Assembly: GCA_050181465.1 (NCBI GenBank)
Contig: JBFXDD010000002.1
Coordinates: forward strand, 117,320 to 181,319
DNA length: 64,000 bases
DNA from: Planctomycetota bacterium
GTDB taxonomy: Bacteria; Planctomycetota; UBA1135; UBA2386
Direction: 5' to 3'
Below the pieces are notes generated by a model. That model ran no database searches. It saw nothing but the letters and a program-made list of their open reading frames with translations, and was not told the DNA's origin. This document shows positions 14,332 to 48,495 of the stretch, one piece after another (the first letter of the stretch is position 1; every line of letters starts with the position of its first letter). The translations under genes were made by a program, and so were the position numbers.

Positions 14332-17298
14332 ATGAGCAGAGCAACCAAGAAGTCCGCGGCGAACGATGCGAAGCGTCCCGAGGGGATTCCGATCGATCTC
14401 GGTCCCCGTGGGCGCGAGTTCCTCGGCATCCTGATCGTGGGCGTCGCGCTCTATCTCCTGGTGTCGTTGGCGACGTTCGACCGCTCGCAACTCGATGCCG
14501 AATCGATCCCGCGCGGCGGCATGCGCAACCTCGGGGGCGTCGTCGGCTACCACTTCGCGAACGGGCTCACGTGGTTACTCGGCGCCGGCTCCTGGGCTCT
14601 GTGTGCGGCGGCCATCGTCGGCGGCTTCGCCGTGTTCACCGGGCGTCGCATCGAGCGCGTCGGTCTCAAGCTCACGGGGCTCTTCGTGTTCGTTCTGATG
14701 CTGGCGATCCTGCTGGCCGGACCGCGCGGCGATGCGCTGCCGACGCGACTGTTCCCGCATGGGCCAGGCGGCGCGATCGCTGCCGCGCTGTCACCGCGGC
14801 TCACGCACTCGCTCGGTGGTTCGGGGCGGCTGTTGGTCGTCCTGTTCGGCGCGCTCGTTTCCTTGTTGCTCGCGACGGAGTGGTTGCTGTCGGCCTTGCT
14901 CTTGCGGCTCGGTGAGCGCGTCGAATCGACGGCCCGGCGCGTCGGCTCGATCCGGCCGCGGTTGGCGTGGGCCAACGAGAACTCCGCGCGCGAGGACGAG
15001 GCGGCCGAACCGACCGCGGTCCTCGATGCGCCGCGCGGCCGTGGTCGACGAGCCGGGCTCGCCAAGTCGTCGCAGTCGGGGGAGGCGGCCGCCGACGAGT
15101 CGGTGAGTCGGTCCGGCGACGCGGACGACGAGGCGGCGTCCCTCGCGGAAGCGCCGACCCGGCGTCGCCGCGGTCGCGCGCGGGTCGAGGTCGAGGCCGC
15201 TACCGGCGAGGCGCTGGAACTCGATGCCGAGTCGATCGAGGACGCCGTCGAGAACGCCGATGAGGACGACGCGCCGCTCGCTGCGCCGAACGAGAGGCGC
15301 GGTGCCTCGGCTGCCGAGGCGGCTGCAAAGGACGCGGTGCCCGCGGACGAAGATGCGGTGGACGCGGCGGTTGCACCCGAACCTGCGGTCGTCGAGGCCG
15401 CGAAGTCCGCCGACGCCGCTCTGCGAATCAACCGGCGCCGGGCCTCACGCACGCGCCCCAAACCGCGGCGTCCGCATCCCGAGTTGCCCTTCGACGAGCC
15501 GTGGAACTACCCGCCGCTCGAACTCTTCCGCGAGCCGCCGGAGCCCGAGCAGGACATCGGCGACCACGTGCTCGAGCAGAACAAGGAGGCGATCGAACGC
15601 CGGTTGGCTTCGTTCAAGCTCGATGCTCGCGTGGTCGCGGTGTCCGTCGGTCCCGCGGTCACGCAGTACGAACTCGAGCTCAGCGAAGGCATCAAGCTCT
15701 CGAAGGTGGTGGCCTACGAGCCGGACTTGGCGGCGGCCCTGCGGGCGCTCAACGTTCGCGTGGTCGCGCCGATTCCGGGCAAGGACACCGTCGGGGTCGA
15801 GGTGCCGAACAAGAAGCGGCAGATGGTCTACATGCGCGAACTGCTCAACGACTACGGGCTCGCCGAGGACCGCGCGATTCCGCTGTTCCTGGGCAAGGAC
15901 GTGGCGGGTGCCGCGATCGTCGAAGACCTCGCGCGCATGCCGCACCTCTTGATCGCGGGCACGACCGGATCGGGCAAGTCGGTCTGCATCAACTCGATCC
16001 TGCTCTCGATCCTGATGACGCGCACGCCGCGCCAGGTGCGGCTCGTGCTGATCGACCCGAAGATGGTCGAGTTGCAGGTGTTCCGGCAGGTGCCGCACCT
16101 CGCCTGCGACGTCGTCACCAACATGAAGCGGGCGCCACAGGTGCTCGATTGGGCGGTGCAGGAAATGGAGCGACGCTACACGCTGCTCTCCGAGGTCGGC
16201 ACGAACCACATCAAGTCGTTCAACAAGCTCGGCCGGGAGGAGGTCGAGCGTCGTCTGCAGCGTCCGGCGGAGGCCGCCGACACGCACCTGCCGTACATCG
16301 TGGTCGTCATCGACGAACTCGCCGACCTGATGAACGTCGCGCAGAAGGAGGTCGAGGAGTCGATTCAGCGACTTGCGCAGAAGTCGCGTGCGGTCGGTAT
16401 CCACGTGATCCTCGCGACGCAGCGGCCGAGCACGGACGTGATCACCGGCATCATCAAGGCGAACTTGCCGTGTCAGGTCGCGTTCAAGGTCAACCGCAAG
16501 ATCGACAGCCGCGTCATCCTCGACAGCAACGGTGCCGAGAAGCTGTTGGGGCATGGTGACATGTTGTTCGTGTCGCCGACGGCCGGGCAGATGGTGCGTG
16601 CGCAGGGCGCTTTCGTCAGCGAGGAGGAGACCCACGGGGTGTGCAGTTGGCTGCAACAGAACGGGCCCGATCAGTCCTTCATCCATTCGCTGGTGCAGAC
16701 CGAAACCGCGAAGAAGAAGGGCTTGTCCGAGCGGGACGACCTCTACGACAAAGCAGCCGAGATCATCCTTGGTCAGCAGCGCGGCTCGGCGACCCTCATC
16801 CAGCGCGCGCTGGCGGTCGGTTACACCCGCGCGACTCGCCTGCTCGAGATGATGGAGGAGGACGGCCTGGTCGGTCCCTTCCTCGGTTCGCGATCGCGGG
16901 AAGTCCTGATGACGGTCGAGGAATGGCGAGCCCGAGAAGCCGCCGCGGCCGAGATGGAGGACGAGTTCGACGAGGACTCCGAGGATGGGCTCGACTGGGA
17001 CGACGAGGATGCCTCGGCTGAGGAGGCCGACGAGGCAGACGCCGACGAGGAACTCGACGAGGAACTCGACGAGGACTCCGACTTGGACGCCGAGGATGAC
17101 GCGTCCGACGAGGACGCCGACGAGGACACCGACGAGGACATCGACGAGGAAACCGACGAAGAAACCGACGAGGACACCGAGGAAGAACTGGACGAAGAAG
17201 ACGACGAAGATTCGGCAGACGAAGACGACGAGGACGCAGAAGACGCCGAGGACGAGGATTCGGACGCAGAGGACGCCGACTCCGACGAGCGGGGCTAG
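14332..17298 (+). CDS. ftsK: DNA translocase FtsK/SpoIIIE (4TM N-domain, Ala/Glu-rich linker, motor, gamma wHTH) with a 115-aa poly-acidic C-terminal tail
   Basis: Walker A LIAGTTGSGKSV and Walker B YIVVVIDELADL are present. The gamma domain reads GSATLIQRALAVGYTRATRLLEMMEEDGLVGP. An SD-like GAAGAGGG lies upstream of the ATG. The tail spans 16951-17295. Confidence 0.9.
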   Translation: MSRATKKSAANDAKRPEGIPIDLGPRGREFLGILIVGVALYLLVSLATFDRSQLDAESIPRGGMRNLGGVVGYHFANGLTWLLGAGSWALCAAAIVGGFAVFTGRRIERVGLKLTGLFVFVLMLAILLAGPRGDALPTRLFPHGPGGAIAAALSPRLTHSLGGSGRLLVVLFGALVSLLLATEWLLSALLLRLGERVESTARRVGSIRPRLAWANENSAREDEAAEPTAVLDAPRGRGRRAGLAKSSQSGEAAADESVSRSGDADDEAASLAEAPTRRRRGRARVEVEAATGEALELDAESIEDAVENADEDDAPLAAPNERRGASAAEAAAKDAVPADEDAVDAAVAPEPAVVEAAKSADAALRINRRRASRTRPKPRRPHPELPFDEPWNYPPLELFREPPEPEQDIGDHVLEQNKEAIERRLASFKLDARVVAVSVGPAVTQYELELSEGIKLSKVVAYEPDLAAALRALNVRVVAPIPGKDTVGVEVPNKKRQMVYMRELLNDYGLAEDRAIPLFLGKDVAGAAIVEDLARMPHLLIAGTTGSGKSVCINSILLSILMTRTPRQVRLVLIDPKMVELQVFRQVPHLACDVVTNMKRAPQVLDWAVQEMERRYTLLSEVGTNHIKSFNKLGREEVERRLQRPAEAADTHLPYIVVVIDELADLMNVAQKEVEESIQRLAQKSRAVGIHVILATQRPSTDVITGIIKANLPCQVAFKVNRKIDSRVILDSNGAEKLLGHGDMLFVSPTAGQMVRAQGAFVSEEETHGVCSWLQQNGPDQSFIHSLVQTETAKKKGLSERDDLYDKAAEIILGQQRGSATLIQRALAVGYTRATRLLEMMEEDGLVGPFLGSRSREVLMTVEEWRAREAAAAEMEDEFDEDSEDGLDWDDEDASAEEADEADADEELDEELDEDSDLDAEDDASDEDADEDTDEDIDEETDEETDEDTEEELDEEDDEDSADEDDEDAEDAEDEDSDAEDADSDERG

Positions 17299-23300: not shown

Positions 23301-24860
23301 ATGGTTCGTTCGAAGTCCAAGTCGAAGGTCGTCGCTCTCGGTGAGACCGGGTTGTCGCTGTCGCAGTGGGTTGCACTCGGTGAGGACCAGAGCCGCATCG
23401 CGGTTCGCCCGGCGGCGCGGCGAAGAATCGCAGCGTCACGGCGCGTCGTCGTGGAGCGCGCGGCGAGCGGCGACGCCGTCTACGGTGTGAACACCGGATT
23501 CGGCAAGCTCGCGAGCGTGAAGATCGCGAGCGAGGATCTCTCGACCCTGCAGCGGAATCTCTTGCTGTCGCATGCCACGGGGGTGGGAGCGCCGCTGCCG
23601 CGGAACGTCGCGCGGATCGCGTTCGCGCTACGGATCCATGCGCTCGCGCGCGGCTTCTCCGGCGTGCGCGTCGAGTTGATCGAAGCGATGCTGGACCTGT
23701 TCAACGCCGGTCTGACACCGGTCGTGCCGAGCCAGGGTTCGGTCGGGGCATCCGGCGATCTCGCGCCACTGGCCCACATGGCGTTGCCGCTCCTGGGGGA
23801 GGGTGATTGCGACGACGGCCGTCGCATCCTCACGGGCGCGGAGGCGTTGCGCAAAGTGGGAAGGCAGCCGATCCAACTCGCCGAGAAGGAGGGGCTGGCA
23901 CTCATCAACGGCACGCAGATCATGACGGCCATCGGGATCGTGGCCACGAACCTCGCGGAGGAATTGGCGCGCGTTGCCGACATCTGCTGTGCGTCGACCA
24001 TCGAGGCTCTGCGCGCGTCGGCGCGACCCTTCCTGGAGCAGGTGCACCGGCTGCGGCCGCATCCTGGACAGCTCGCGACCGCATCGAACGTCTCTTCGCT
24101 GTTGCGTGGATCCAAGATCCTCCCGAGCCACGTCGATTGTGCGAAGGTGCAGGATGCCTACTCGATGCGCTGTGCACCGCAGGTGCATGGAGCGGCGAAG
24201 GACGGCATCGCGTATGCGCGGAGGGTCGTGCTGACCGAGGCGCACGCGGTCACCGACAATCCGCTGGTCTTTCCGGATGGCGAGACGGTGTCGGCCGGCA
24301 ACTTTCACGGGCAGCCGGTCAGCCAGGCGATGGACTACCTCAAGATCGCGGTGGCCACGCTCGCGAACATCAGCGAGCGACGGATCGAGAACTTGGTCAA
24401 CCCCGACATCTCGGGGCTGCCGCCGTTTCTCGCGAAGGACCCCGGCCTCGAGAGTGGGATGATGATCGCCCAAGTCGCTGCGGCGGCCCTCGCATCGGAG
24501 AACAAGACGCTGGCGCATCCCGCGAGCGTCGACACGATACCGACCTCGGCGAATCGCGAAGACCATGTCTCGATGGGGGTCACCGCAGCGAGACACGCGA
24601 TGCTCGTCCTCGAGAACACCGCCAATGTGCTGGCGATCGAATGGATCGCCGCCGCGGTTGCTCTCGATGCCGGCGAGCCGCTTCGTCCTGGCAAGGGCGT
24701 AGCGGCTGCGCATGCGTGTCTTCGCGAAGTGGTCGCGCCCCTTGGGGCAGATCGAGTACTGGCCACGGACATCCACAAAGCGCGTGCACGCATCGTGAAC
24801 GGCGAGCTCTCGGCTCGCGTGGAGAGGGCCGTCGGAAGGCTCGACCCGACTTCCGACTGA
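23301..24860 (+). CDS. hutH: histidine ammonia-lyase
   Basis: The MIO-forming motif GSVGASGDLAPLAH is present. YGVNTGFGKLA and the overall length of 519 aa are typical for HutH. Confidence 0.92.
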   Translation: MVRSKSKSKVVALGETGLSLSQWVALGEDQSRIAVRPAARRRIAASRRVVVERAASGDAVYGVNTGFGKLASVKIASEDLSTLQRNLLLSHATGVGAPLPRNVARIAFALRIHALARGFSGVRVELIEAMLDLFNAGLTPVVPSQGSVGASGDLAPLAHMALPLLGEGDCDDGRRILTGAEALRKVGRQPIQLAEKEGLALINGTQIMTAIGIVATNLAEELARVADICCASTIEALRASARPFLEQVHRLRPHPGQLATASNVSSLLRGSKILPSHVDCAKVQDAYSMRCAPQVHGAAKDGIAYARRVVLTEAHAVTDNPLVFPDGETVSAGNFHGQPVSQAMDYLKIAVATLANISERRIENLVNPDISGLPPFLAKDPGLESGMMIAQVAAAALASENKTLAHPASVDTIPTSANREDHVSMGVTAARHAMLVLENTANVLAIEWIAAAVALDAGEPLRPGKGVAAAHACLREVVAPLGADRVLATDIHKARARIVNGELSARVERAVGRLDPTSD

Positions 24861-24885
24861 AACCTCGCCGCGCGCGTTCTCTTCC

Positions 24886-25066
24886 AGCCCGGATGATTCG
24901 CGAACGCCTGCGGCGATCGCCGCAACTCGATGTCCCTCTGCGTCGCTACGTCGGCTCCTCCTCGGGAGCGTAGCGACGGCTACGCTTGGGTCGTCGCCCG
25001 GATCAGCTCCTTGCCGGGCATCGACCTGCGCTGATCTCGAGACGACGTCCACGAACAATCCGGGCT
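24886..25066 (+). repeat. copy A of a ~180-bp element with terminal inverted repeats (MITE/Correia-like), lying between hutH and hutU
   Basis: The 5' arm AGCCCGGATGATTCGCGAACG matches the reverse complement of the 3' arm, AGCCCGGATTGTTCGTGGACG. A perfect internal palindrome GCGGCGATCGCCGC lies at 24910-24923. A central 10-bp stem pairs CGTCGCTACG (24941-50) with CGTAGCGACG (24969-78). The copy is collinear with copies B and C. Confidence 0.8.
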
Positions 25067-25091
25067 GGCTTGGGCTACATTGCGCGGCGGC

Positions 25092-29619: not shown

Positions 29620-30342
29620 TCAGAAGTCGAAGTCGCTCCGCAGGAGTTCGCGGAGTTCGTAGAACGTGCTGATCACGTAGTCCGGCTTCGTGCGTCCAGG
29701 GGTTGTGGAGTGTCGGCCCGAGCGCCGATTGTGCACCGTGATCATCCCGACTTCGTGCGCCGGATCGATGTCGTTGGTGGGATTGTCGCCGACGTAGAGC
29801 GATCGAGCCGGAGAGAGTCCGAGGTCTTGGAGAACTCTTCGGTAGAGCTTCGGGTTCGGCTTGTTGATCCCGACCTGCTCGGTGAAGTAGATCGCGTTGG
29901 GGGTGAGAAACTGGTACACGCGCAGTCGGATCACCTTCTCCGCCTGTTTGATCCCTAGCCCCGACGAGATGATTCCGCGCACCAGGCCGACTCGCGACGA
30001 GAGCCACTGCAGGACTTCATAGACATCGTCGTACACCTTGAGCTCGTGCCACTTCGTCTCGTGATAGGCGACGATGCCGGCCGCGACCAAGATGTCCGGG
30101 TTGATTCCCTCGCTCGCACTCGGCGGCAGCCGCTGGAGCACCTTGTCGAAGTGGGAGGGATAGTTGCTCGAGAACTCGGCGACGACTTCCGCAAGCTCTC
30201 GAAGGCAGTCGTCAACGCTCGCTCGAAGGCCGTGACGAACCATCGCGTCCATCGCCGCTCGCCGAGCCTTGTCGGCGAATACGGACGTGGAGAACAGCGT
30301 GTCGTCGATGTCGAAGAAGATCGCGTCGAGGGAACGGCCCAC
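29620..30342 (-). CDS. HAD-superfamily hydrolase
   Basis: Motif I FFDIDDTLF, motif II IISSG and motif IV YVGDNPTNDI are present. The gene is convergent with the actin gene. Confidence 0.85.
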   Translation of the reverse strand: MGRSLDAIFFDIDDTLFSTSVFADKARRAAMDAMVRHGLRASVDDCLRELAEVVAEFSSNYPSHFDKVLQRLPPSASEGINPDILVAAGIVAYHETKWHELKVYDDVYEVLQWLSSRVGLVRGIISSGLGIKQAEKVIRLRVYQFLTPNAIYFTEQVGINKPNPKLYRRVLQDLGLSPARSLYVGDNPTNDIDPAHEVGMITVHNRRSGRHSTTPGRTKPDYVISTFYELRELLRSDFDF

Positions 30343-30355
30343 GAGGAGGAATCCT

Positions 30356-30536
30356 AGCCAGGACGATTCGTGAACGTCTGCTGCGATCGCCGCAACTCGC
30401 GCCCGACCGCATCGCTGCGTCGGCTCCTGCTTGGCAGCACGGCGACCGGCTACGCTTCGGTGGTCTCCCGCCGCAGCTCCTTCCTCGGCATCGACCTGTG
30501 GCGATCTCGCGACGTCCTTCGCGAATCGTCCGGGCC
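30356..30536 (+). repeat. copy B of the ~180-bp inverted-repeat element
   Basis: The 5' arm AGCCAGGACGATTCGTGAACG matches the reverse complement of the 3' arm, GGCCCGGACGATTCGCGAAGGACG. The copy shares CTGCTGCGATCGCCGCAA, GGCTACGCTTCGGT and GGCATCGACCTG blocks with copies A and C. It lies between the secretin-1 stop and the HAD gene start. Confidence 0.8.
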
Positions 30537-30673
30537 AGCCAGGGCCGGCTCAGGCCTGGTGTTGCGCTTCCCGCTTCGACCCCTGCGAGCGGTTGGAGTT
30601 GTCCGTACGCAAAGCGAGCCGCCCCAAAGGGACGGCTCGAACCTCGATGCTGCAATATGGTCGCGATCGGCGA

Positions 30674-33280
30674 TCAGCGACCGTTCATCACGTCGCGGAC
30701 GTCCGTGATCGTCGCCTTGACCAACACCATCAGCGAGCTGTTCTCGTCGACCACGCCCTCTTGCTTGAAGAAGAAGGAGAGGAGCGGGATGCGGCCGAGG
30801 ATCGGCACTTCGGCTCGACGCTCACGGCTGAGCACCTGCCGGAGGCCGCCGATCAGCACTGAGCCTCCATCAGGAACGTCGATCGTGGTCGCGAAGGACC
30901 GAACGACGAGCTGCGGGAGCTGCAGGGTGACCGGCTGGGTTGTGCCGGCGAGCGAGGTCGAGAAGGTCGGGATCGGGCGAACCAGGTCCGCGACCGTCGG
31001 CTGCATGCTGAGGCTGATGCGACGACGATCGGCCGACACCGTCGGCTTGACGTCGAGCACGATGCCGTCCTGGATGACGTCGATCTTGGGATCGGCGATG
31101 AAGGCCGCCTGCGCAACTTCGACTTCGAAGTCACGGACGTAGGCCGTCTGGTTGATGATCGAGACGTAACCGCGCTCGTTGTTGAGCACCGTCAGGTTCT
31201 GACCGTTCAGCTCCTGAGCGTCTTGCTTCTTCTCGACCGCGGTGAGGATCGCCTGCAACTCGAGATCGTTGAGGAACGCGATGGCCGCGGTCATGCCGCC
31301 GTTGGCCGTCAGCGAGCTCCCGAGCGAGGAGGTGAAGCCGTTCTCGGTCCGACCGCGCAGGTCACCGTCTTGGCCGTCGTTGTAGAAGAAGCCGGAGAAA
31401 GGCTTGCCGGCCGGGTCACCCGTGCCCGAGTTGTCGAGACCACGGCTGGCGTTGTTGCTGAGGCCGTTGGTCACGTCGTCGAGCTGGGCCACGGTGCCCT
31501 TGGCGCCGGAGCCGCCCAGACCGCGGAAGTCCACGCCGATCTGCTGCAGGAAGTTCTGACTGACGTTGAGGAACTTCGATTCGACGGTCACGACCGTCGT
31601 GGCAAAGCTACGCAGGTCGTTCAGGATCGTCTCGACGCGGCCGAGCATGGCCGGGTTGGCAGTCACGATGAGATAGCCGCTCTCGGACTGATCGATCTTG
31701 CCGCCGCCATCGGTGTCCCAATAGGTGGGGTCGGTGGCTTCCTTGAGGTTGGAAGCAAGCTTGTCGAGCTCGATGAACGTGGTCTTCTCATCGCCCTCGC
31801 CGCCGGTGCGCGGAACGTCGCTCGAGTCGTCGCCGGTCGGGATGTCGCGGATGCGCGGCGGCAGGAACTGGGTCTTCGCGAAGATCAGATCGCGGACGTC
31901 CATGTAGACGGTCTCGTTCGAGCCACCGGCTTGCGCCTTCGTGGTGATCTGCACGACTCCGTCGCGGACGGTCCAGGCGAGCTGCGCGCTGCGGCCGGTG
32001 ACCTGGTTGAGCAGCGAATCGACGGCCATCGGCGCCGTGATGTCCATCACGATCTTGACGGCTTCCGAGTCGATGACCTCACGCGCCTCCGGCGTGATGA
32101 TCATGGACACGCCGGCGATCGCCTGGATGCGCGTCTTGACCTCGTCGACCGTGCCGTCCTCCTCGGTGAAGGAGATGCCGCTCAGCTTGGTGTCGCGCAG
32201 GATCTTGCGCAGCGCGAGATCATCGGGGTTCTCGATGAACTTGGGGCTGGAGGGAGCGACGCGATTGCTCGCGCGGGCCCAGATCGCAGCGTCGACGGCG
32301 AGCACTTCGTTCTGCGGGATGCGCAGGTCCTCTGCCGTCTCGCGCATCTGGCGGATGCGCTGCGCCCAGGCGCGATAGTATTCATCCGACCGCGATTCCC
32401 GTGCAGCCTTGATCGAGGCGTTGTGGAGTTCGCGGGCGACCTGATTCGAGGGGTCGGCTTCCAGCGCCTTGAATGCGAAGTCCTGGGCGAGTTGGAAGTT
32501 GCGCCGCTCGAAAGCCAAAGTCGCGTTGGCCAAGAGGCCGCCGACCTGTGCACGGATGCGGGCTTCGCGAGCCTCTTCCTGAGCGCGCAGTTCGGTAGCG
32601 GTGCGACGACGGATCTCGTCGCGCTCCGCACGTTCGGCGTCGTCTCGCTTCTTCTCGGCGTCGGCGAGCGCAAGTTTCGCTCGCGGCTCGAGATCGCCCC
32701 AGGCGACGTAGCGGGCGAGGTCGATGTTCCACAGCGCGCGTCGGAAGTCCTCGACCGCACGCGTGAAGTTCTGCTGTGCCAGCGCCTGCTGTCCGGAGTC
32801 CAGCAAGGACAGCACTTCGGCGCGTTGCCGTTCTTCTTGAATGGCGGCGAGTCGGGACTGTTCCTCGGCGAAGGAGGTCACCGTTCCTGCCGGCAGACCG
32901 AGCTCCGCGGAGACCACGTCGAGCAGGTTCTTCACTCGCGGGTCATCCGGCCGGAGATCGAAGGCCTTCACGAGTTCCAATCGCGCGGCTTCCAAGGCCT
33001 CGGGCGTACCCCTTCGGCGGAGGCTCTCTGCCCGCTCGAGGTAGTCCTCGAGCAGCAGGCGATTGCGTTGTGCTTGCAGGGAGTTGTCTTGATCTCCGCT
33101 GCCCGGAACGGGCGTTGGGTCCTGCGTAGACCCGCCAGCCGCGTTGCCGCGGCCAGTCGGTGTCGTGGCTTCGCCGCCGTTCCCTGCATCTCCCGACGAG
33201 TCGGTCGCAGAACAGGCGGAGAATCCGAACAGGAGAGCAGAGATCGAAGCTGCTAGGAGGCTTTGACGATCGAGCTTCAT
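30674..33280 (-). CDS. secretin-family outer-membrane lipoprotein (secretin-1) with a long helical/coiled-coil N-terminal region
   Basis: The internal start MKLDRQSLLAASISALLFGFSAC carries a lipobox. An N0/STN-like module reads VSMIITPEAREVIDSEAVKIVMDITAPMAVDSLLNQVTGRSAQLAWTVRDGVVQITTK. The C-terminal secretin domain reads ...IDVPDGGSVLIGGLRQVLSRERRAEVPILGRIPLLSFFFKQEG... Confidence 0.85.
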   Translation of the reverse strand: MKLDRQSLLAASISALLFGFSACSATDSSGDAGNGGEATTPTGRGNAAGGSTQDPTPVPGSGDQDNSLQAQRNRLLLEDYLERAESLRRRGTPEALEAARLELVKAFDLRPDDPRVKNLLDVVSAELGLPAGTVTSFAEEQSRLAAIQEERQRAEVLSLLDSGQQALAQQNFTRAVEDFRRALWNIDLARYVAWGDLEPRAKLALADAEKKRDDAERAERDEIRRRTATELRAQEEAREARIRAQVGGLLANATLAFERRNFQLAQDFAFKALEADPSNQVARELHNASIKAARESRSDEYYRAWAQRIRQMRETAEDLRIPQNEVLAVDAAIWARASNRVAPSSPKFIENPDDLALRKILRDTKLSGISFTEEDGTVDEVKTRIQAIAGVSMIITPEAREVIDSEAVKIVMDITAPMAVDSLLNQVTGRSAQLAWTVRDGVVQITTKAQAGGSNETVYMDVRDLIFAKTQFLPPRIRDIPTGDDSSDVPRTGGEGDEKTTFIELDKLASNLKEATDPTYWDTDGGGKIDQSESGYLIVTANPAMLGRVETILNDLRSFATTVVTVESKFLNVSQNFLQQIGVDFRGLGGSGAKGTVAQLDDVTNGLSNNASRGLDNSGTGDPAGKPFSGFFYNDGQDGDLRGRTENGFTSSLGSSLTANGGMTAAIAFLNDLELQAILTAVEKKQDAQELNGQNLTVLNNERGYVSIINQTAYVRDFEVEVAQAAFIADPKIDVIQDGIVLDVKPTVSADRRRISLSMQPTVADLVRPIPTFSTSLAGTTQPVTLQLPQLVVRSFATTIDVPDGGSVLIGGLRQVLSRERRAEVPILGRIPLLSFFFKQEGVVDENSSLMVLVKATITDVRDVMNGR

Positions 33281-33647
33281 CGTGATGAGGCTTCCGGGCG
33301 GCGCGCGCGACGACCGCGTTGGGACTTCAGGCCAAGGACGTTGGACGTCTCCGTGTCGTTTGCGGGAGCGACCCGAATCGAACCGAGCATGGGACGACCG
33401 ACATCGAAGGACGGGACAAGGGGGCTCGCGCCGGATGCAGAACGAGGGGTGATCCTGCGGCGCGAGGGCCAAAAGCTAGCGAGCCGGACCTGCCGGTGCC
33501 AGGACGAAGTCCGCGTGATTCTTCGTCGTTCGCCGTCGAATTTTGCCCTCGGCGTTGGCTCGAAGAACACGACCGCAAACCGGCACCTCGGCAGCCGTCC
33601 GGGCGCGCGCTGGGAGAACGTATCGACGTGAGCTAGCCCGGAACGCA

Positions 33648-40364: not shown

Positions 40365-43061
40365 TCAGCGCGTGCTCAGTAGCGTGTCCACCGCATCGGG
40401 CAGCACGCCGGGCTCGAACTCCGGCGCCAGGATGATCCGGGCACGGATGAGGATGATGATCTTGCGATTGAGCACGTAGCTGCCCTTACGGCTGAACAGC
40501 AGCGACAGACCCGGCAGATCCTTGAGGATCGGCACGCCGGAGACTTGGTTCTGCCGCTCAGCGAGCTTCATGCCGCCGAGCAGGATCGAGCCGCCGTCCG
40601 GCATCGTCACCGTGGTGCGGACGCTCTGCAGGTTGGTCACCGGCAGCTGGATCGAAACCGGTTGGCCGGCACCCAGCGTCGTGGTGAAGGTCGGGATCGG
40701 AAGCTGCAGGGTCATCACGGTCGGACGGAGCTCCATCGTGATGAAGCGGCGATCCGCGGAAACGACCGGGCGGACATCGAGCACGACACCGTCACGTACC
40801 ACACCGACGACCGGGTTCGCCACGGCAGCCGCCTGCGCGATTTCCACACCGAAGTCGCTGATGTAGGAGGTGGAACGCAGCGCCTGCATGTGCGCGCGGG
40901 TGTTGTTGAACACCAAGAGCCGCGGCGCCACGATCTCCTCGCTGCGCTCCTGCTTCGAGACCGCGCGCAGGATGAGCTGCAACTCGGTGTCGTCGAGGTA
41001 GGCGTACTGGAGGGAGAGGCCGCCGGAGTTGTCGAGGCCGCCTTGACGGCCGCCGAGCGCGCGATCGTAGAGGTGCTCGGTGCGCCCCATGATGTCGCCG
41101 TCGCCACCGTCGTCGAAGAAGACGCCCGGCTCGGTCCCGGAGCCGATTTGGCCGGGCGCCGCCGAGTTGATCTGCTCCGCACGACCAAAGTCGTCGAAGC
41201 GAAGGTTGCTGCGGTTGTTCCGCTCGAGGCCGCGGCCAGCGCGACCTTCCGAGGACTGATCGCCGAGACCGCGGAAGTCGACGCCGATGTCTTCGAGGAA
41301 GGAGTCCTCGACCTTCAGGAAGCGCGCTTCGATGTCGACTTGGATTCCGACCGACTGCCGGAGCTGGCCCAGCAGGCGCTCGATCTGCTCGTGAACTTCT
41401 CGGGTGTTGCGGACGAGCAACACACCGCTCTCGAAGTTGATCGTGTTGCCTTCGGTCCAGCTCTCAGCGGCGATGTTCGACTGGATCAAAGTCGTCAGGG
41501 TGCCGTCGTCGACCACGCTCGGGAGCGGATCTTCTTCATCGAGCCCGAGGCCGCCGTCGTCGGAGCCCGGGACGGTCAGGCGAAGCTGCGGACCGGGCTG
41601 ATTGCGGATGCCCTGCACGATGTCGCGCACTTCGTACTGCTTGAGATAGGCGCGGCCGATCGGTGTGGCGGCCGACACGATCTCGACGACCCCGTCACGC
41701 ACGTGCCACTTGAGGCCGGTCTGTGCCGCGATCACGTTGAGCGCCTTGCTCACCGGCATGTTCGCCAAGTGGAAGTCGGTCAAGGTCGTCGCTTCTTCGC
41801 CCGCCTCGGTTGCGCTCGGGGCGATCACGACGTTCACGTTGGTCGCGTCTTGGTAGTGACGAGCCCAGTCGCGCAAGGTCGCCGAGCTGAAGTGGTGCTC
41901 GATGCTGACCGAGTCGAGGATCTGGCGAACGGCGCGATCCTCGCTGGCTTCCATGGCCTCGGCCGGCGTGAACTCGCGGGGCTTGCGAGTCTCGAGCACG
42001 TAGGACCAGCGTTGCAGGTCGTAGACCACGGTCTCGGTCTGCGGCAGCAGCGAGCGGTTGATCTCGTCGAAGGCCTCGATCCACTGTTCCTTCCAACGCT
42101 GCCGTGCAACGTCGAGCTTGCTCTCGTGATTCGCTCGCGAGGCCAGGTCCAGGAAGGCCGCGACTTCTGCGTTGTTCGGGTCGATGGTGGCCGCTTGTTG
42201 CAGCGCCGATTCCGCGGAGCCGAAGTGGCCGTTCTGGAAGTCTTGGTTGGCCTGCACGAGCAGTCGCGACACGCGCTGTTCGCGCTCGAGTCGGCGGCGC
42301 CGTTCGGCTTCTTCGAGTTCCGCACGCGAGCGAGACTGCTCGTCGGCCAACTCCTTCTGCATCGCCTCGGCGCGACGCTGCTGCGCCATCTCGTACTTGC
42401 GCTGGATCTCCTTCTCGAGGTCCGTGCCCGGCGTCGAGAAGGCGTCGATCTGCAGTTGCCGCAAGGCGGTGTAGTAGTGCTCGATGGCGTCGGCGTAGCG
42501 ACCCAGTTCGAGTTCGGCGTCGGCCTGTTGCGTCAGCTGACGGACGCGGAAGCGAGTGCGCTCCTGCGCGACGCGCGCTTCGAGCACCTTGCTGTCGAAG
42601 GTGCGCGCGACGCGAGCGGTGTCATCCCCGAGGATCTCCTGCACGGAGAGAAGGATGGTTCGTGCCTCCTCGTTGGTCTCGTCGAGTTCGAGCACCTGAG
42701 TCGACTCGCGCAGCGCGTCGGCGTACAGGCGGTACTCGAGCGCACGGCGAGCCCGATCCAGGCCGTCCTGGATCAGCAGTCGGCGGCGTTCCTGACCGAC
42801 CTGTGCCGGCGGATCCTGGGGCTTGTCTTGTTCCCCGGAAGCGACTCCATACGACGCGAGGTCGAGCCGTGCGATCCCAGGCGATGGAGTCAAGGGCCGG
42901 ACTGCCGCGCCACCATTGCCGCCGTGACCGACGGCGCTGCCACCGGCCGTGTTCGGCGCGGTGTCTGGGGTGGCGGGTCCCTGCGTTCCCGAGCAGGCGA
43001 ACAGGAGAGCGGCGGAGGAGAGGGTGAGGCCGCGAAGGACTATCGAACGGACCATCTTCAT
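40365..43061 (-). CDS. secretin-family outer-membrane lipoprotein (secretin-2), paralog of secretin-1
   Basis: A lipobox SAALLFACSG is present, followed by a long coiled-coil/helical N-region. The N0/STN-like module reads VNVVIAPSATEAGEEATTLTDFHLANMPVSKALNVIAAQTGLKWHVRDGVVEIVSA. The secretin C-domain reads ...VTMPDGGSILLGGMKLAERQNQVSGVPILKDLPGLSLLFSRKG... Confidence 0.85.
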   Translation of the reverse strand: MKMVRSIVLRGLTLSSAALLFACSGTQGPATPDTAPNTAGGSAVGHGGNGGAAVRPLTPSPGIARLDLASYGVASGEQDKPQDPPAQVGQERRRLLIQDGLDRARRALEYRLYADALRESTQVLELDETNEEARTILLSVQEILGDDTARVARTFDSKVLEARVAQERTRFRVRQLTQQADAELELGRYADAIEHYYTALRQLQIDAFSTPGTDLEKEIQRKYEMAQQRRAEAMQKELADEQSRSRAELEEAERRRRLEREQRVSRLLVQANQDFQNGHFGSAESALQQAATIDPNNAEVAAFLDLASRANHESKLDVARQRWKEQWIEAFDEINRSLLPQTETVVYDLQRWSYVLETRKPREFTPAEAMEASEDRAVRQILDSVSIEHHFSSATLRDWARHYQDATNVNVVIAPSATEAGEEATTLTDFHLANMPVSKALNVIAAQTGLKWHVRDGVVEIVSAATPIGRAYLKQYEVRDIVQGIRNQPGPQLRLTVPGSDDGGLGLDEEDPLPSVVDDGTLTTLIQSNIAAESWTEGNTINFESGVLLVRNTREVHEQIERLLGQLRQSVGIQVDIEARFLKVEDSFLEDIGVDFRGLGDQSSEGRAGRGLERNNRSNLRFDDFGRAEQINSAAPGQIGSGTEPGVFFDDGGDGDIMGRTEHLYDRALGGRQGGLDNSGGLSLQYAYLDDTELQLILRAVSKQERSEEIVAPRLLVFNNTRAHMQALRSTSYISDFGVEIAQAAAVANPVVGVVRDGVVLDVRPVVSADRRFITMELRPTVMTLQLPIPTFTTTLGAGQPVSIQLPVTNLQSVRTTVTMPDGGSILLGGMKLAERQNQVSGVPILKDLPGLSLLFSRKGSYVLNRKIIILIRARIILAPEFEPGVLPDAVDTLLSTR

Positions 43062-45168: not shown

Positions 45169-47964
45169 ATGTCGACTCCTCCGCGCCTGCCCCTCGGCCT
45201 CGCCGGACCGCTGGCCCTCGCCCTGCTCGTCGCGGCGGCCTTCCTGCCGACCGCGCTGGTCGCCGACTTCTTGAACTTCGACGACAACCGCCTTGTCGGG
45301 CCAGGCTCGGAACTCGGGAATGCCGGACTGCTCGGGGCGCTCGATCCGCGCCGCACCGTCGCCGATGCATACCTGCCGGTCACGCACGCCTTCTTCTGGC
45401 TGCAAGCGACAGTGTTCGGCGAGCGACCACTCGGATTCCACTTGGTCAGCGTGGTGCTGCAGGCGGTTGCCGCGGTCTGTGTCCTCCGTCTTCTCCTGCG
45501 ACTGGGCGTGCGCTCGGCGGTCGCACTCACCGCGAGCGCGGTGTTCGCGGTCCATCCCGCTCTCGCGGAGTCGGTCAGTTGGGTATCCGGACAAAAAGAT
45601 CTTTTGTCCGGCATCTTCGCTGCCCTGGCGCTGACTTGCGTCGCGCGTTCGCACGGCGCGTCGGCGGGCTGGCGCTTGCCGCTTCGAGCGATGCTGTTCG
45701 CGTTGCTCGCGGTCTACTCCAAGGCGACGGCGATCGTGCTGATCCCGTTGGCCTGGATCCTGGTGTTCTCGCTGCGGGCAAGGCCGCTGGGAACCGGCGA
45801 ATCCGGTGTTGTTTGGCCGATTGGCGCACGGCGCGCAGCATTGCTCATCACCGCGATCTGCGTCCCGGCGGCGGCGCATCATGCTGCGGTGGCGGCCGCC
45901 GGAGGTGTGATTCAAGCCGGCGACCTCGTGCAGCGATGCCTGCAGGTGCCTGGTGCGATGATGCACTATCTGCTCACAGCGTTGTGGCCAACAGACTTGG
46001 ATGTCTTGTATCCCGAAGTCAAGACGCTCGAGTCGTTTCGCGCCGGTGTCGGTGTCGCGACGATCGTGCTGGTGCTCGTCACCTTGATCGCCGTCCTTGC
46101 TCGCCGCCGGAACCCGGTCTTCCTAGCGGGTGTCGCGGTCTTCTTCGTGGCGCTGGCGCCGGCGAACACGGCCCTGCCAGCATCCTCGATCGCCGCGGCG
46201 GACCGCTACCTGTACCTGGCGTTGCCGGGGCTGGCACTCGCCATCGCGAGCCTTCCGAGCGTGGGTGTCGTGCTGACCGGCATCGCGATCTTGCCCCTGT
46301 TCGTCCTGACCAATGCACGGTCGGCGGAGTTTCGGTCGAGTGAGGCGCTCTGGCAGGCCAGCTTGGACCGCGACCCGGAGAACGCCTTGGCGCTGTTGAA
46401 CCTCGCCAATGCCCGATTGGCTTCGTTCGGCGGCTCCGACGTCGAGCTGACCGGGCTGCGCAACCTCGTCGAACAGGCCGAGGCAGTCGCCCGCTACCCA
46501 CAGCACCGTTGGCGCGCAGCCCGCGCCGGTTCGGAGCTTGCGCTGCTCGCCGGAGACGTCCAGGCGGCGACCCGCGCCGCTGGGCGTGCTGCCGTCGCCG
46601 CGCGAAGTTTCGACCCGCAGCAGCCTCATGCCTTCGAAGCGAGACTCGAATCCGAGCTGACCGCGGCGAGACTCGCACGGCGGGTCGGCGACGGCGAGGC
46701 GGCCTCCGGTTACTTCGCGGAGGCCGAGACGCTCTCGCCGGGTCATCCGAGCGTGCTCGCCTTCGATGCGGCGCGGCGATTCGGCGATGCCGCGGGTCCG
46801 GACGGCAGACTGGCCGCCGAGGCGCCCGAAGCGACGGCAGCCGCGGCGATTCTCGAGCGTGCGCTGGCGGCCGATCCGAACTCGTACGATGCGCTCTGGA
46901 CCAAAGGCCTCCTTCTGCGCGCGACCGGCCGGCTGCTCGAGGCCGAGGTCGCGCTGCGCAAGGCCGTGGAATCCGCTCCGTGGCGCGAAGAGGCGTGGGT
47001 CGCGCGCTGCGAGCTGTTCCTCGCTCAGCCCGACATGGCGAAGACCGCCGAGTCGATCGCCCGCGAAGGCATCATCCAGGTCGGCGATCGGCAGGCCGCG
47101 GGCCTCCAGTTTCGCCTCGCACTGGCCTTGGGTGCGCAGGGCCGACTCGACGACGCGAAGGCGTTCTATGAGGCCGCCCTGGCGCTGCGGCCGGGCGATA
47201 CCCAGATCCAGCAGGCACTCGCGGCCGTGCTCGGCGCGATCGGTGTGCGCGACCTGTTCGTGGCGACCCCCGACGCACTTCTCACGACCGCGGATCGCAT
47301 CGCCGCCCTCGATGCCGGCAATCCTAAGGGCAAGTTGCTGCGTGCGGTCGCCTATCGTGGCCAAAAGCGCCTCGCCGACGCGCTGATTCTGCTGCGCGAG
47401 GTGCGAGCGGTCATGCCCGGGGATCCCGAGGTCGAGCAGTTGTTCGCGGAGGCGCTGCGCGATCGTGGCTGGCAGCTCTGGCTCGCCGAGCCGGATCGCG
47501 ACGCTTCATGGGCCTACTTCGTCGAATTCCTGCGGAGCGCCCCTGCGAGTGTCGATCGTCAGGCCGTAGAGAACCTCGTCCGCGGCGAATGGGAGCGACG
47601 TTACGCAGCCGGCAAGGCGGCTCTCGTCGACCGCGATCTCGGCGCGGCCGAGGGACATCTGCGCGCGGCGCTCGCACTGCGGGAGGACGGCGCGCCTGCC
47701 CTCGAACTCGCGATGACGCTCCTCGCGCGCGACGGCGGGCCGGCGACGTCGCGCGAGGCGCTGCAACTGTGCGACCGCGCGCGCGACGACCAGGTGCGCT
47801 ACGGCCTCGACCGCAGTCTGCCCGTTCTGTACGGCTTGATGGCGCTCGATCGACTCGGCGACCGTGAGGAGTTGGTGGCTCGGGCGCGGGCATACCTCGA
47901 GGCGCCGGATGCCGATGCCCAGGAGGACGTCTTGGCGCGGATCAGGGTCTTCGCCGCCGACTGA
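45169..47964 (+). CDS. TMTC/PMT_2-like polytopic membrane protein fused to a C-terminal TPR array (putative glycosyltransferase-like)
   Basis: About 11 hydrophobic helices are present, with N-terminal FLNFDDNRLV and HLVSVVLQAVAAVCVLRLL...VSWVSGQKDLLSG motifs. TPR repeats occupy the C-terminal roughly 550 aa. Confidence 0.75.
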   Translation: MSTPPRLPLGLAGPLALALLVAAAFLPTALVADFLNFDDNRLVGPGSELGNAGLLGALDPRRTVADAYLPVTHAFFWLQATVFGERPLGFHLVSVVLQAVAAVCVLRLLLRLGVRSAVALTASAVFAVHPALAESVSWVSGQKDLLSGIFAALALTCVARSHGASAGWRLPLRAMLFALLAVYSKATAIVLIPLAWILVFSLRARPLGTGESGVVWPIGARRAALLITAICVPAAAHHAAVAAAGGVIQAGDLVQRCLQVPGAMMHYLLTALWPTDLDVLYPEVKTLESFRAGVGVATIVLVLVTLIAVLARRRNPVFLAGVAVFFVALAPANTALPASSIAAADRYLYLALPGLALAIASLPSVGVVLTGIAILPLFVLTNARSAEFRSSEALWQASLDRDPENALALLNLANARLASFGGSDVELTGLRNLVEQAEAVARYPQHRWRAARAGSELALLAGDVQAATRAAGRAAVAARSFDPQQPHAFEARLESELTAARLARRVGDGEAASGYFAEAETLSPGHPSVLAFDAARRFGDAAGPDGRLAAEAPEATAAAAILERALAADPNSYDALWTKGLLLRATGRLLEAEVALRKAVESAPWREEAWVARCELFLAQPDMAKTAESIAREGIIQVGDRQAAGLQFRLALALGAQGRLDDAKAFYEAALALRPGDTQIQQALAAVLGAIGVRDLFVATPDALLTTADRIAALDAGNPKGKLLRAVAYRGQKRLADALILLREVRAVMPGDPEVEQLFAEALRDRGWQLWLAEPDRDASWAYFVEFLRSAPASVDRQAVENLVRGEWERRYAAGKAALVDRDLGAAEGHLRAALALREDGAPALELAMTLLARDGGPATSREALQLCDRARDDQVRYGLDRSLPVLYGLMALDRLGDREELVARARAYLEAPDADAQEDVLARIRVFAAD

Positions 47965-48116
47965 TGCTGGTCGAAGGAATGTTGCTCGGTCGAACTCTCG
48001 TCGACCGCCTGCCAGGCCGGGCTGCGACCGCGGAACGACACTGGGTCCGGGCGCGCGTGGGCACCGCCGAGAGCGCGAAGGCGGAATCGGAGGCGCTGCG
48101 ACTCATCGCGCGGCCT

Positions 48117-48296
48117 AGCCCGGATGACTCGTAAACGTCTGCTGCGATCGCCGCAAGTCGCGCCCGGCGGCGTCGCTACGTCGTCTCCTCCCTGGCAGCG
48201 TAGCTACAGCTACGCTTCGGTCGTCGACCGACGCAGCTCCTCGCCGGACATCGACCTGCGGCGATCTCTCGACGACGTTCACGAATAATCCGGGCT
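48117..48296 (+). repeat. copy C of the ~180-bp inverted-repeat element
   Basis: The 5' arm (CT)AGCCCGGATGACTCGTAAACG matches the reverse complement of the 3' arm, (CT)AGCCCGGATTATTCGTGAACG. The central stem pairs GTCGCTACG with CGTAGCTAC. The copy is collinear with A and B. Confidence 0.8.
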
Positions 48297-48495
48297 AGTG
48301 CCTCGTGAGCCAAGCAACATTCGTTCGACCACGATCCTCGAGGTTGATGCGCGGGAGCGGAACCTGTAGCGTCCCGCAAGCCTCCGCGGACGCGGTTGGC
48401 GGGCGGTGGCGCGGTGGTCAGGCCGCGCCAGCAGTGCGTATTCCGTGACCGCGCAGCACCGCGGTCGGCTTCGCTCTTCGATCTGGGAGTTCGTG

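Follow-up and report, generated by a model that had tools for sequence, protein, structure and literature searches.

The window that we analysed is a 64-kb stretch of DNA (contig C2:117320-181319) from a 5.31-Mb genome assembly, referred to here as G000, which consists of 122 contigs with 66.5% G+C and is 88% complete. Three copies of one short repeat are found in it, at 24886-25066, 30356-30536 and 48117-48296, all lying between genes and all in a single shared model orientation. Copy A occupies the spacer between hutH (stop at 24860) and hutU (start at 25080/25092); the product of the latter, urocanase, was closest to urocanases of Planctomycetota MAGs, with 72-77% identity. Copy B is enclosed by two minus-strand genes, a HAD hydrolase gene whose start is at 30342 and a secretin gene whose stop is at 30674, and copy C is preceded by a TPR protein gene that stops at 47964 and followed by one starting at 48406. 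The features, with the flanking tetranucleotides included in the outer coordinates, are as follows.

24884 to 25068, plus strand: MITE copy A in the hutH-hutU spacer, core 24888 to 25064 (CCCGGATG...CAATCCGGG)
24884 to 24887 and 25065 to 25068: decayed target duplications of copy A, CCAG on the left and CTGG on the right
24888 to 24908, plus strand: left terminal inverted repeat of copy A, CCCGGATGATTCGCGAACGCC, the presumed transposase-binding end
25044 to 25064, minus strand: right terminal inverted repeat of copy A, reverse complement CCCGGATTGTTCGTGGACGTC
30354 to 30538, plus strand: MITE copy B in the secretin/HAD hydrolase spacer, core 30358 to 30534
30354 to 30357 and 30535 to 30538: flanks of copy B, CTAG on the left and a decayed CCAG on the right
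48115 to 48298, plus strand: MITE copy C downstream of the TPR protein gene, core 48119 to 48294
48115 to 48118 and 48295 to 48298: flanks of copy C, CTAG intact on both sides

Other repeated sequences were also seen in the window. The secretin gene next to copy B (30674-33472, minus strand), which has that copy just downstream of it, is paralogous to a second secretin gene about 10 kb away at ~40365-43061, and segments of the two genes (repeat families D10 and D11) are 70-72% identical in DNA sequence. In addition, a long 12-nt periodic GAC/GAG-rich repeat run (family D1, 25 registers) is present at 16931-17272; the protein segment that it would encode, if coding, is strongly acidic and rich in Asp/Glu.

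The alignment of the three copies was collinear over ~181 columns with a mean column identity of 84%, and the similarity collapsed directly outside the common ends. The first-pass annotation had described three collinear, same-orientation and intergenic copies, and the coordinates, the alignment and the gene neighbours all agree with this description. The shared blocks that it quoted, CTGC(G/T)GCGATCGCCGCAA, GGCTACGCTT(C/G)GGT and CATCGACCTG, are likewise present in the alignment. A repeat search within the 64-kb window recovered the same three copies, as its families D2-D5, and no further one. Copy C was found to be 95% identical to the family consensus described below, and copies A and B are 85.6% and 83.9% identical to it.

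To determine the size of the family, an nhmmer profile was built from the three window copies and searched against the whole 5.3-Mb assembly. It gave 770 hits, which were reduced to 477 non-overlapping loci, the weaker match of each locus on the opposite strand being due to the palindromic nature of the element. Of these loci, 301 are full-length, 180 bp being the most frequent length, and 176 are partial; together they amount to 69.6 kb, or 1.3% of the genome, and both strands are used equally. When copy A was used as a BLAST query, more than 50 further full-length matches were obtained in the genome (E 1e-44 to 1e-54). The high genome-wide copy number that had been proposed from three copies in the window was thus borne out. 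The identity of individual copies to the consensus peaks at 92-96%, with a maximum of 98.3%; young copies with 97% or more include C16:89126-89305 and C12:36397-36576. The element carries no gene, and 87% of all MITE bases lie outside called genes. An overlap of more than 30 bp with a called gene was noted at 76 of the 382 places into which the loci group; the gene calls are approximate here, and gene ends may run into copies.

The core of the element is 176-177 bp long and reads CCCGGAT...ATCCGGG, so that the consensus with its flanks is CTAG|CCCGGAT...ATCCGGG|CTAG. Among 136 copies of exact length, conservation was high over positions 1-180 and fell to background beyond, except for two flank bases on each side (CT on the left, 0.92 and 0.88; AG on the right, 0.79 and 0.92). 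The terminal inverted repeats are ~21 bp long, and the two consensus ends are identical over 25 nt including CTAG. The length of ~21 bp given in the first-pass annotation is therefore correct for the ends, but the adjoining CTAG is a target duplication, and the symmetry continues beyond the ends through the whole element. Indeed, the entire element is an imperfect palindrome that is predicted to fold into one long hairpin, the two strands having folding energies of -120 and -140 kcal/mol and z-scores of -13 and -15. Shortened forms of 62-153 bp, with recurrent size classes near 89, 128 and 152 bp, have kept both ends together with the CTAG flanks and have symmetrically lost the hairpin tip. 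Two subfamilies could be distinguished by compensatory changes at the pairs 37/143 and 65/115, and they also differ in the paired versus mismatched state at 47/132 and 62/118. These differences indicate that complementarity of the arms has been kept in the proliferating lineages, either through selection acting on the mobile form or through repair of one arm from the other. On the evidence of its sequence the element is classed as a MITE, for which it shows all the defining features that can be tested. The earlier assignment to MITEs or to Correia/ERIC-type elements holds for the former, as shown by size, ends, dispersed copies and ends shared with an insertion sequence (IS, see below); Correia and ERIC are functional analogies only and not homologues.

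We then considered the CTAG on either side of the core. CTAG was present on both sides in 103 of 285 full copies, and the majority of the remainder were one base off. The number of flank mutations rose with divergence, the identity to consensus being 93.9% in copies with no flank mutation and 86% in those with four, as expected if an original CTAG decays in situ with the age of the copy. No target-site duplication had been recognized at first, and the CT...AG around copy C had been taken as a mere extension of the palindrome. Both statements have to be revised: CTAG is the duplication, it is intact on both sides of copy C, and it was mistaken for an extension of the inverted repeat because it is itself palindromic. 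Taken alone, the copies in G000 fit a 4-bp CTAG duplication, a 2-bp TA duplication or an extended inverted repeat equally, so the call of 4 bp is drawn from relatives and from the features of the transposase family.

These relatives are of several kinds. In G003, a genome of the same genus, IS1380-family elements with 38-39% amino acid identity have the structure CTAG|CCCGGAT...TCCGGG|CTAG. Two copies of an IS in another genome (G033) have 5-bp direct repeats, GTCAG and CTGAC, that directly abut CCCGG, and the element terminus is therefore CCCGG. Metagenomic relatives of the IS with 48-82% amino acid identity have cores of ~1.68-1.69 kb, two of them of exactly 1687 bp, and are flanked by CTAG/CTAG, CTAG/TTAG or TTAA/TTAG. 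One IS1380-family relative with 48% amino acid identity (L149, 1407-3094; ena:ERZ25039554 contig_63) ends in CCCGGATTATTCATGA and has TTAA and TTAG as its flanks. In a related MITE family of G022, copies are flanked by CTAA/CTAA and CTCG/CTCG, which are direct repeats and not palindromic. Within the IS1380 family, IS1247 is 1672 bp long and has a 5-bp direct repeat (PMC3281130). From these flanking sequences we conclude that the target is CTAG, or more loosely YTAR, and that it is duplicated as 4 bp.

A separate pattern was noticed among copies with both flanks mutated. Mirror-image pairs (CCAG...CTGG or CTGG...CCAG) occurred in 11 copies, copy A of the window being an example, and direct pairs in 2, where ~2.7 of each would be expected if the two sides mutated independently; repair templated across the hairpin may be the cause. 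Inheritance of mutated flanks, as overhangs carried along in the manner of piggyBac, was considered and rejected, as the seven CCAG/CTGG copies do not cluster (mean pairwise identity 0.852) and hence form no subfamily.

The partner element was sought genome-wide in two ways, through pairs of MITE ends more than 230 bp apart and through transposase families, and both converged on C7:90946-92636. An IS with a core of 1687 bp lies there, flanked by CTAG on both sides and with ends CCCGG...CCGGG. It has a single open frame of 452 aa from the first ATG, the product of which matched the IS1380 family transposase model NCBIfam NF033539 with 346 bits (cut-off 180) and PF13701 with 389 bits over positions 7-426 of 435. 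Counting CTAG, all 23 of 23 bases at the left end of this IS agree with both MITE ends, and 19 of 20 do so at its right end. The first-pass annotation had seen no transposase, which is true of the window itself but not of the genome, and the search that it proposed for a transposase with matching ends succeeded at this locus. Members of the IS1380 family are ~1.55-2 kb long, with a single ORF, short inverted repeats beginning with CC and a direct repeat of 4-5 bp. The IS on C7 agrees with the family in length, in its single ORF, in its CC-start inverted repeats and in having CTAG on both sides. Beyond the terminal ~21 bp, no similarity was found between the MITE interior and the C7 IS, which means that the MITE did not arise from it by a simple internal deletion. 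The partner IS lacks the subterminal motifs CTGCTGCGATCGC and GATCTCGCGAC (MITE positions 22-35 and 146-158), which are conserved across MITE families from three genera (G000, G020 and G022; L035, L151-L157).

A second, partial copy of the IS is located on contig C122, with 95% DNA identity and a preserved end that is even nearer to the MITE end. This contig region (1-2596) contains the last 629 bp of the IS, with ...CCGGG|CTAG ending at 1011, joined to a different DDE_Tnp_1 frame at 1222-1740. Such a structure indicates that insertion sequences break the assembly, so that the count of one intact and one partial copy in an 88%-complete assembly is probably an underestimate. Other candidates were discarded: the remaining DDE_Tnp_1 (PF01609) genes are not bounded by MITE ends, and other pairs of MITE ends 1-6 kb apart belong to distinct MITE copies that enclose ordinary genes and no transposase. 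A structure model of the transposase, obtained from an 82%-identical homologue with 45 aligned relatives, had a mean pLDDT of 86.8. In a fold search with this model the best solved structure was Tn5 transposase (E 1e-8, TM 0.45-0.48), and piggyBat was weaker (E 6.5e-3, TM 0.33); a sequence search against the PDB gave no meaningful match.

The genome was then examined for the target itself. Base composition would predict 16380 CTAG sites, but 1485 were counted, an approximately 11-fold depletion; the counts for the other tetranucleotides in which A, C, G and T each appear once are 5,000-69,000. The ends of MITE copies account for about 30% of the CTAG sites (420-445), while 614 are in called genes and 451 in other non-coding DNA. 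Thus 58% of the free CTAG sites are genic, yet ~87% of MITE bases lie outside called genes, which suggests selection against insertions in genes.

The 477 loci group into 382 places, 80 of which hold two to five units. All units have one orientation in 76 of these 80 arrays, and no two-unit array is inverted, where half would be expected to be inverted if orientation at the palindromic target were random. Every one of the 21 adjacent pairs of full-length units abuts with zero gap and in the same orientation, the period being 180 bp (176 + 4). Examples of arrays are C2:181403-181762, just beyond the end of the window, and C4:124587-125353. The scarcity of CTAG is probably what explains these exact 180-bp head-to-tail arrays. 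If new copies enter the CTAG that borders an older one, this would account for the register and frequency of the arrays, but not for the near-absence of inverted pairs; for the latter, instability of perfect 360-bp palindromes or local duplication is possible. Adjacent units were more alike than random pairs (92.7% versus 86.6%), so local duplication or gene conversion may have had a share in forming the arrays.

To follow the element outside G000, orthologous sites were compared in three genomes of the same genus (G001-G003). The gene pair around copy B is present in all three, with spacers of ~130-210 bp compared with 331 bp here, and no MITE sequence was found in these spacers; at the site of copy A in G003, the hutH-hutU gap is 19 bp and holds no MITE. 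Absence was read in these comparisons from spacer lengths together with the missing MITE sequence, as the intergenic DNA of these genomes is too diverged for base-precise alignment of junctions and yielded no alignable empty site. A presence/absence difference had been proposed at the outset as the test that separates a mobile element from a conserved RNA, and such a difference was found, the sites that could be checked being empty for copy B in three genomes and for copy A in one. The three genomes hold ~1, 6 and 0 MITE copies, and G002 also contains fragments of the same IS with 77-81% amino acid identity.

Related MITE families with the same ends and CTAG flanks were found in G020 and G022, which belong to two other genera of the same family. 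Two copies close to the consensus, likewise with flanks of the CTAG type, were detected on contigs of a MAG labelled Dehalococcoidia (L031, 3792-3971, JBFWUX010000034.1; L032, 2792-2971, JBFWUX010000039.1). These contigs are otherwise without similarity to G000, which points to horizontal spread or to mis-binned contigs. A survey of 400 genomes of the phylum gave no further match, which is weak evidence as only two candidates were scored per genome. Taken together, the counts in the congeners, the families in G020 and G022 and the copies in the Dehalococcoidia MAG show that the expansion is specific to the lineage of G000 and that the element type is older.

In our view these observations are very probably explained as a whole by a MITE that is moved in trans by an IS1380-family DDE transposase, inserts into CTAG with a 4-bp duplication, targets its own ends to form arrays and then decays neutrally. 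From the match of the ends, the transposase of the C7-type IS most likely acts in trans on the ~21-bp ends of the MITE, and the DDE enzyme would carry out cut-and-paste transposition. The element inserts into CTAG, which is duplicated to give 4 bp on each side, so that each insertion adds one extra CTAG to a CTAG-poor genome. New insertions would often enter the CTAG at the end of an existing copy and give rise to head-to-tail arrays with the exact period of 176 + 4 bp. Copies already in place decay neutrally, with symmetric deletions removing their middle, and the long hairpin is a consequence of the palindromic origin and not a host function.

A more elaborate account on the model of piggyBac appears unlikely as a combination. 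It joins CTAG-restricted insertion, seamless excision, self-targeting, an extra subterminal signal and arm-templated repair. The regenerated CTAG would itself be targeted and produce the 180-bp arrays; the motifs CTGCTGCGATCGC and GATCTCGCGAC may be an extra signal for the transposase or a host factor, which would explain why the MITE outnumbers its partner several hundred to one; and arm-to-arm templated repair would explain both the compensatory changes between subfamilies and the excess of mirror-image flanks. The likeness to eukaryotic piggyBac lies in a 4-bp palindromic target with central TA (TTAA for piggyBac, CTAG here), in ends of the form CCC...GGG, and in the one IS relative flanked by TTAA/TTAG. 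IS1380 elements are not known to excise seamlessly, and the fold search ranked Tn5 first and piggyBat only weakly. IS1380 transposases have been used as the prokaryotic outgroup of piggyBac (PMC10813416).

It is very unlikely that the MITE is moved by some other transposase, such as an IS630/Tc1-type enzyme that duplicates TA within CTAG, or an IS5-type enzyme. IS630 inserts at CTAG and duplicates TA, and the C-TA-G flanks and the 180-bp period fit 178 + 2 as well as 176 + 4. However, no DDE_3 match above the cut-off was obtained in the genome, the remaining PF01609 matches are not bounded by MITE ends, and the only gene that is so bounded belongs to the IS1380 family. The non-palindromic 4-bp repeats of relatives (CTAA/CTAA and CTCG/CTCG) and the 5-bp repeat abutting CCCGG also speak against a TA duplication.

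A further reading, that the repeat is an immobile structured RNA or regulatory element conserved for a host function, such as a terminator, an RNase III site or a stabiliser of mRNA, was found highly improbable. The hairpin is very stable and copy A lies inside the hutH-hutU junction, both of which would suit such a role. The consensus, moreover, has five A-C mismatches and no G-T mismatch, so that an RNA from the minus strand would fold 20 kcal/mol better. This asymmetry was followed up as a possible sign of a functional RNA and did not hold: the overall excess of 798 A-C over 352 G-T stems only from inherited high-frequency variants, and rare stem substitutions are symmetric (280 A-C versus 290 G-T), which indicates that the copies decay neutrally, with no selection on single copies for an RNA fold. 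With respect to co-directional flanking genes, 83 copies are on the same strand and 86 on the opposite one, and orientation showed no bias indicative of a strand-specific function when set against flanking genes, the local gene strand or GC skew. No Rfam 15 family reached the gathering threshold anywhere in the window, copy A had no match at E<=1, and it is without a terminator-like T run or a promoter-like site. The checkable orthologous sites in the congeners lack the element, and no host function is indicated.

The least credible alternative is a REPIN-like hairpin doublet moved as single-stranded DNA by a RAYT or another HUH (Y1) transposase, for although the single long hairpin (-120/-140 kcal/mol, z -13/-15), the hundreds of intergenic copies and the compensatory pair changes at 37/143 and 65/115 would agree with it, PF01797 (Y1_Tnp) had no match in the 88%-complete genome while the same search was positive in 6 control genomes, a target duplication is present where REPINs have none, a DDE-type IS1380 element has identical ends, and orientation is unbiased with respect to GC skew, taken as a stand-in for the replication strand.

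Returning to the MITE mobilized by an IS1380-family transposase, its nearest parallels are the IS-derived MITEs of other bacteria. MITEPye1 of Paracoccus yeei is a bacterial MITE linked to the IS1182 family and present in 1-3 copies per chromosome (PMC11578231). Like it, the present element is small and non-coding, has terminal inverted repeats matching those of an autonomous IS together with flanking direct repeats, is mostly intergenic with a predicted long stem-loop, and is presumed to be moved in trans. In contrast to MITEPye1, it has ~480 copies, an IS1380-family partner, a strict CTAG target, exact 180-bp head-to-tail arrays and an interior unrelated to the IS. The C7 partner resembles the members of the IS1380 family (IS1380, IS1247 and ISEcp1) in its size (1687-bp core), its single 452-aa DDE transposase, its CC-start inverted repeats and its 4-bp duplication, whereas the 180-bp element has no transposase and is a derivative or parasite of that family. 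With REPINs/RAYT, Correia of Neisseria and ERIC of enterobacteria it shares the character of an abundant, intergenic, hairpin-forming repeat; unlike these, it has no RAYT gene that could be found, a CTAG duplication in place of TA (Correia) or none (REPIN), no sequence relationship to them and a host of a different phylum. A limited search of the literature mentioning both IS1380 and MITE returned no MITE tied to IS1380, with entries in ISfinder being possible, and the link may be one that is rarely described. The element is thus a new MITE family that is ordinary in kind, and not a new type of system.

For the genome of this organism, it is now possible to mask ~480 loci, which make up 1.3% of the sequence, and to name them as a single MITE family, and contig breaks and odd gene ends near MITE loci gain an explanation. 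For the family of elements, the data provide a clear case of a high-copy MITE tied to the IS1380 family, with a strict target that the host genome avoids 11-fold. The scarcity of CTAG would steer insertions to intergenic DNA and to the element's own ends.
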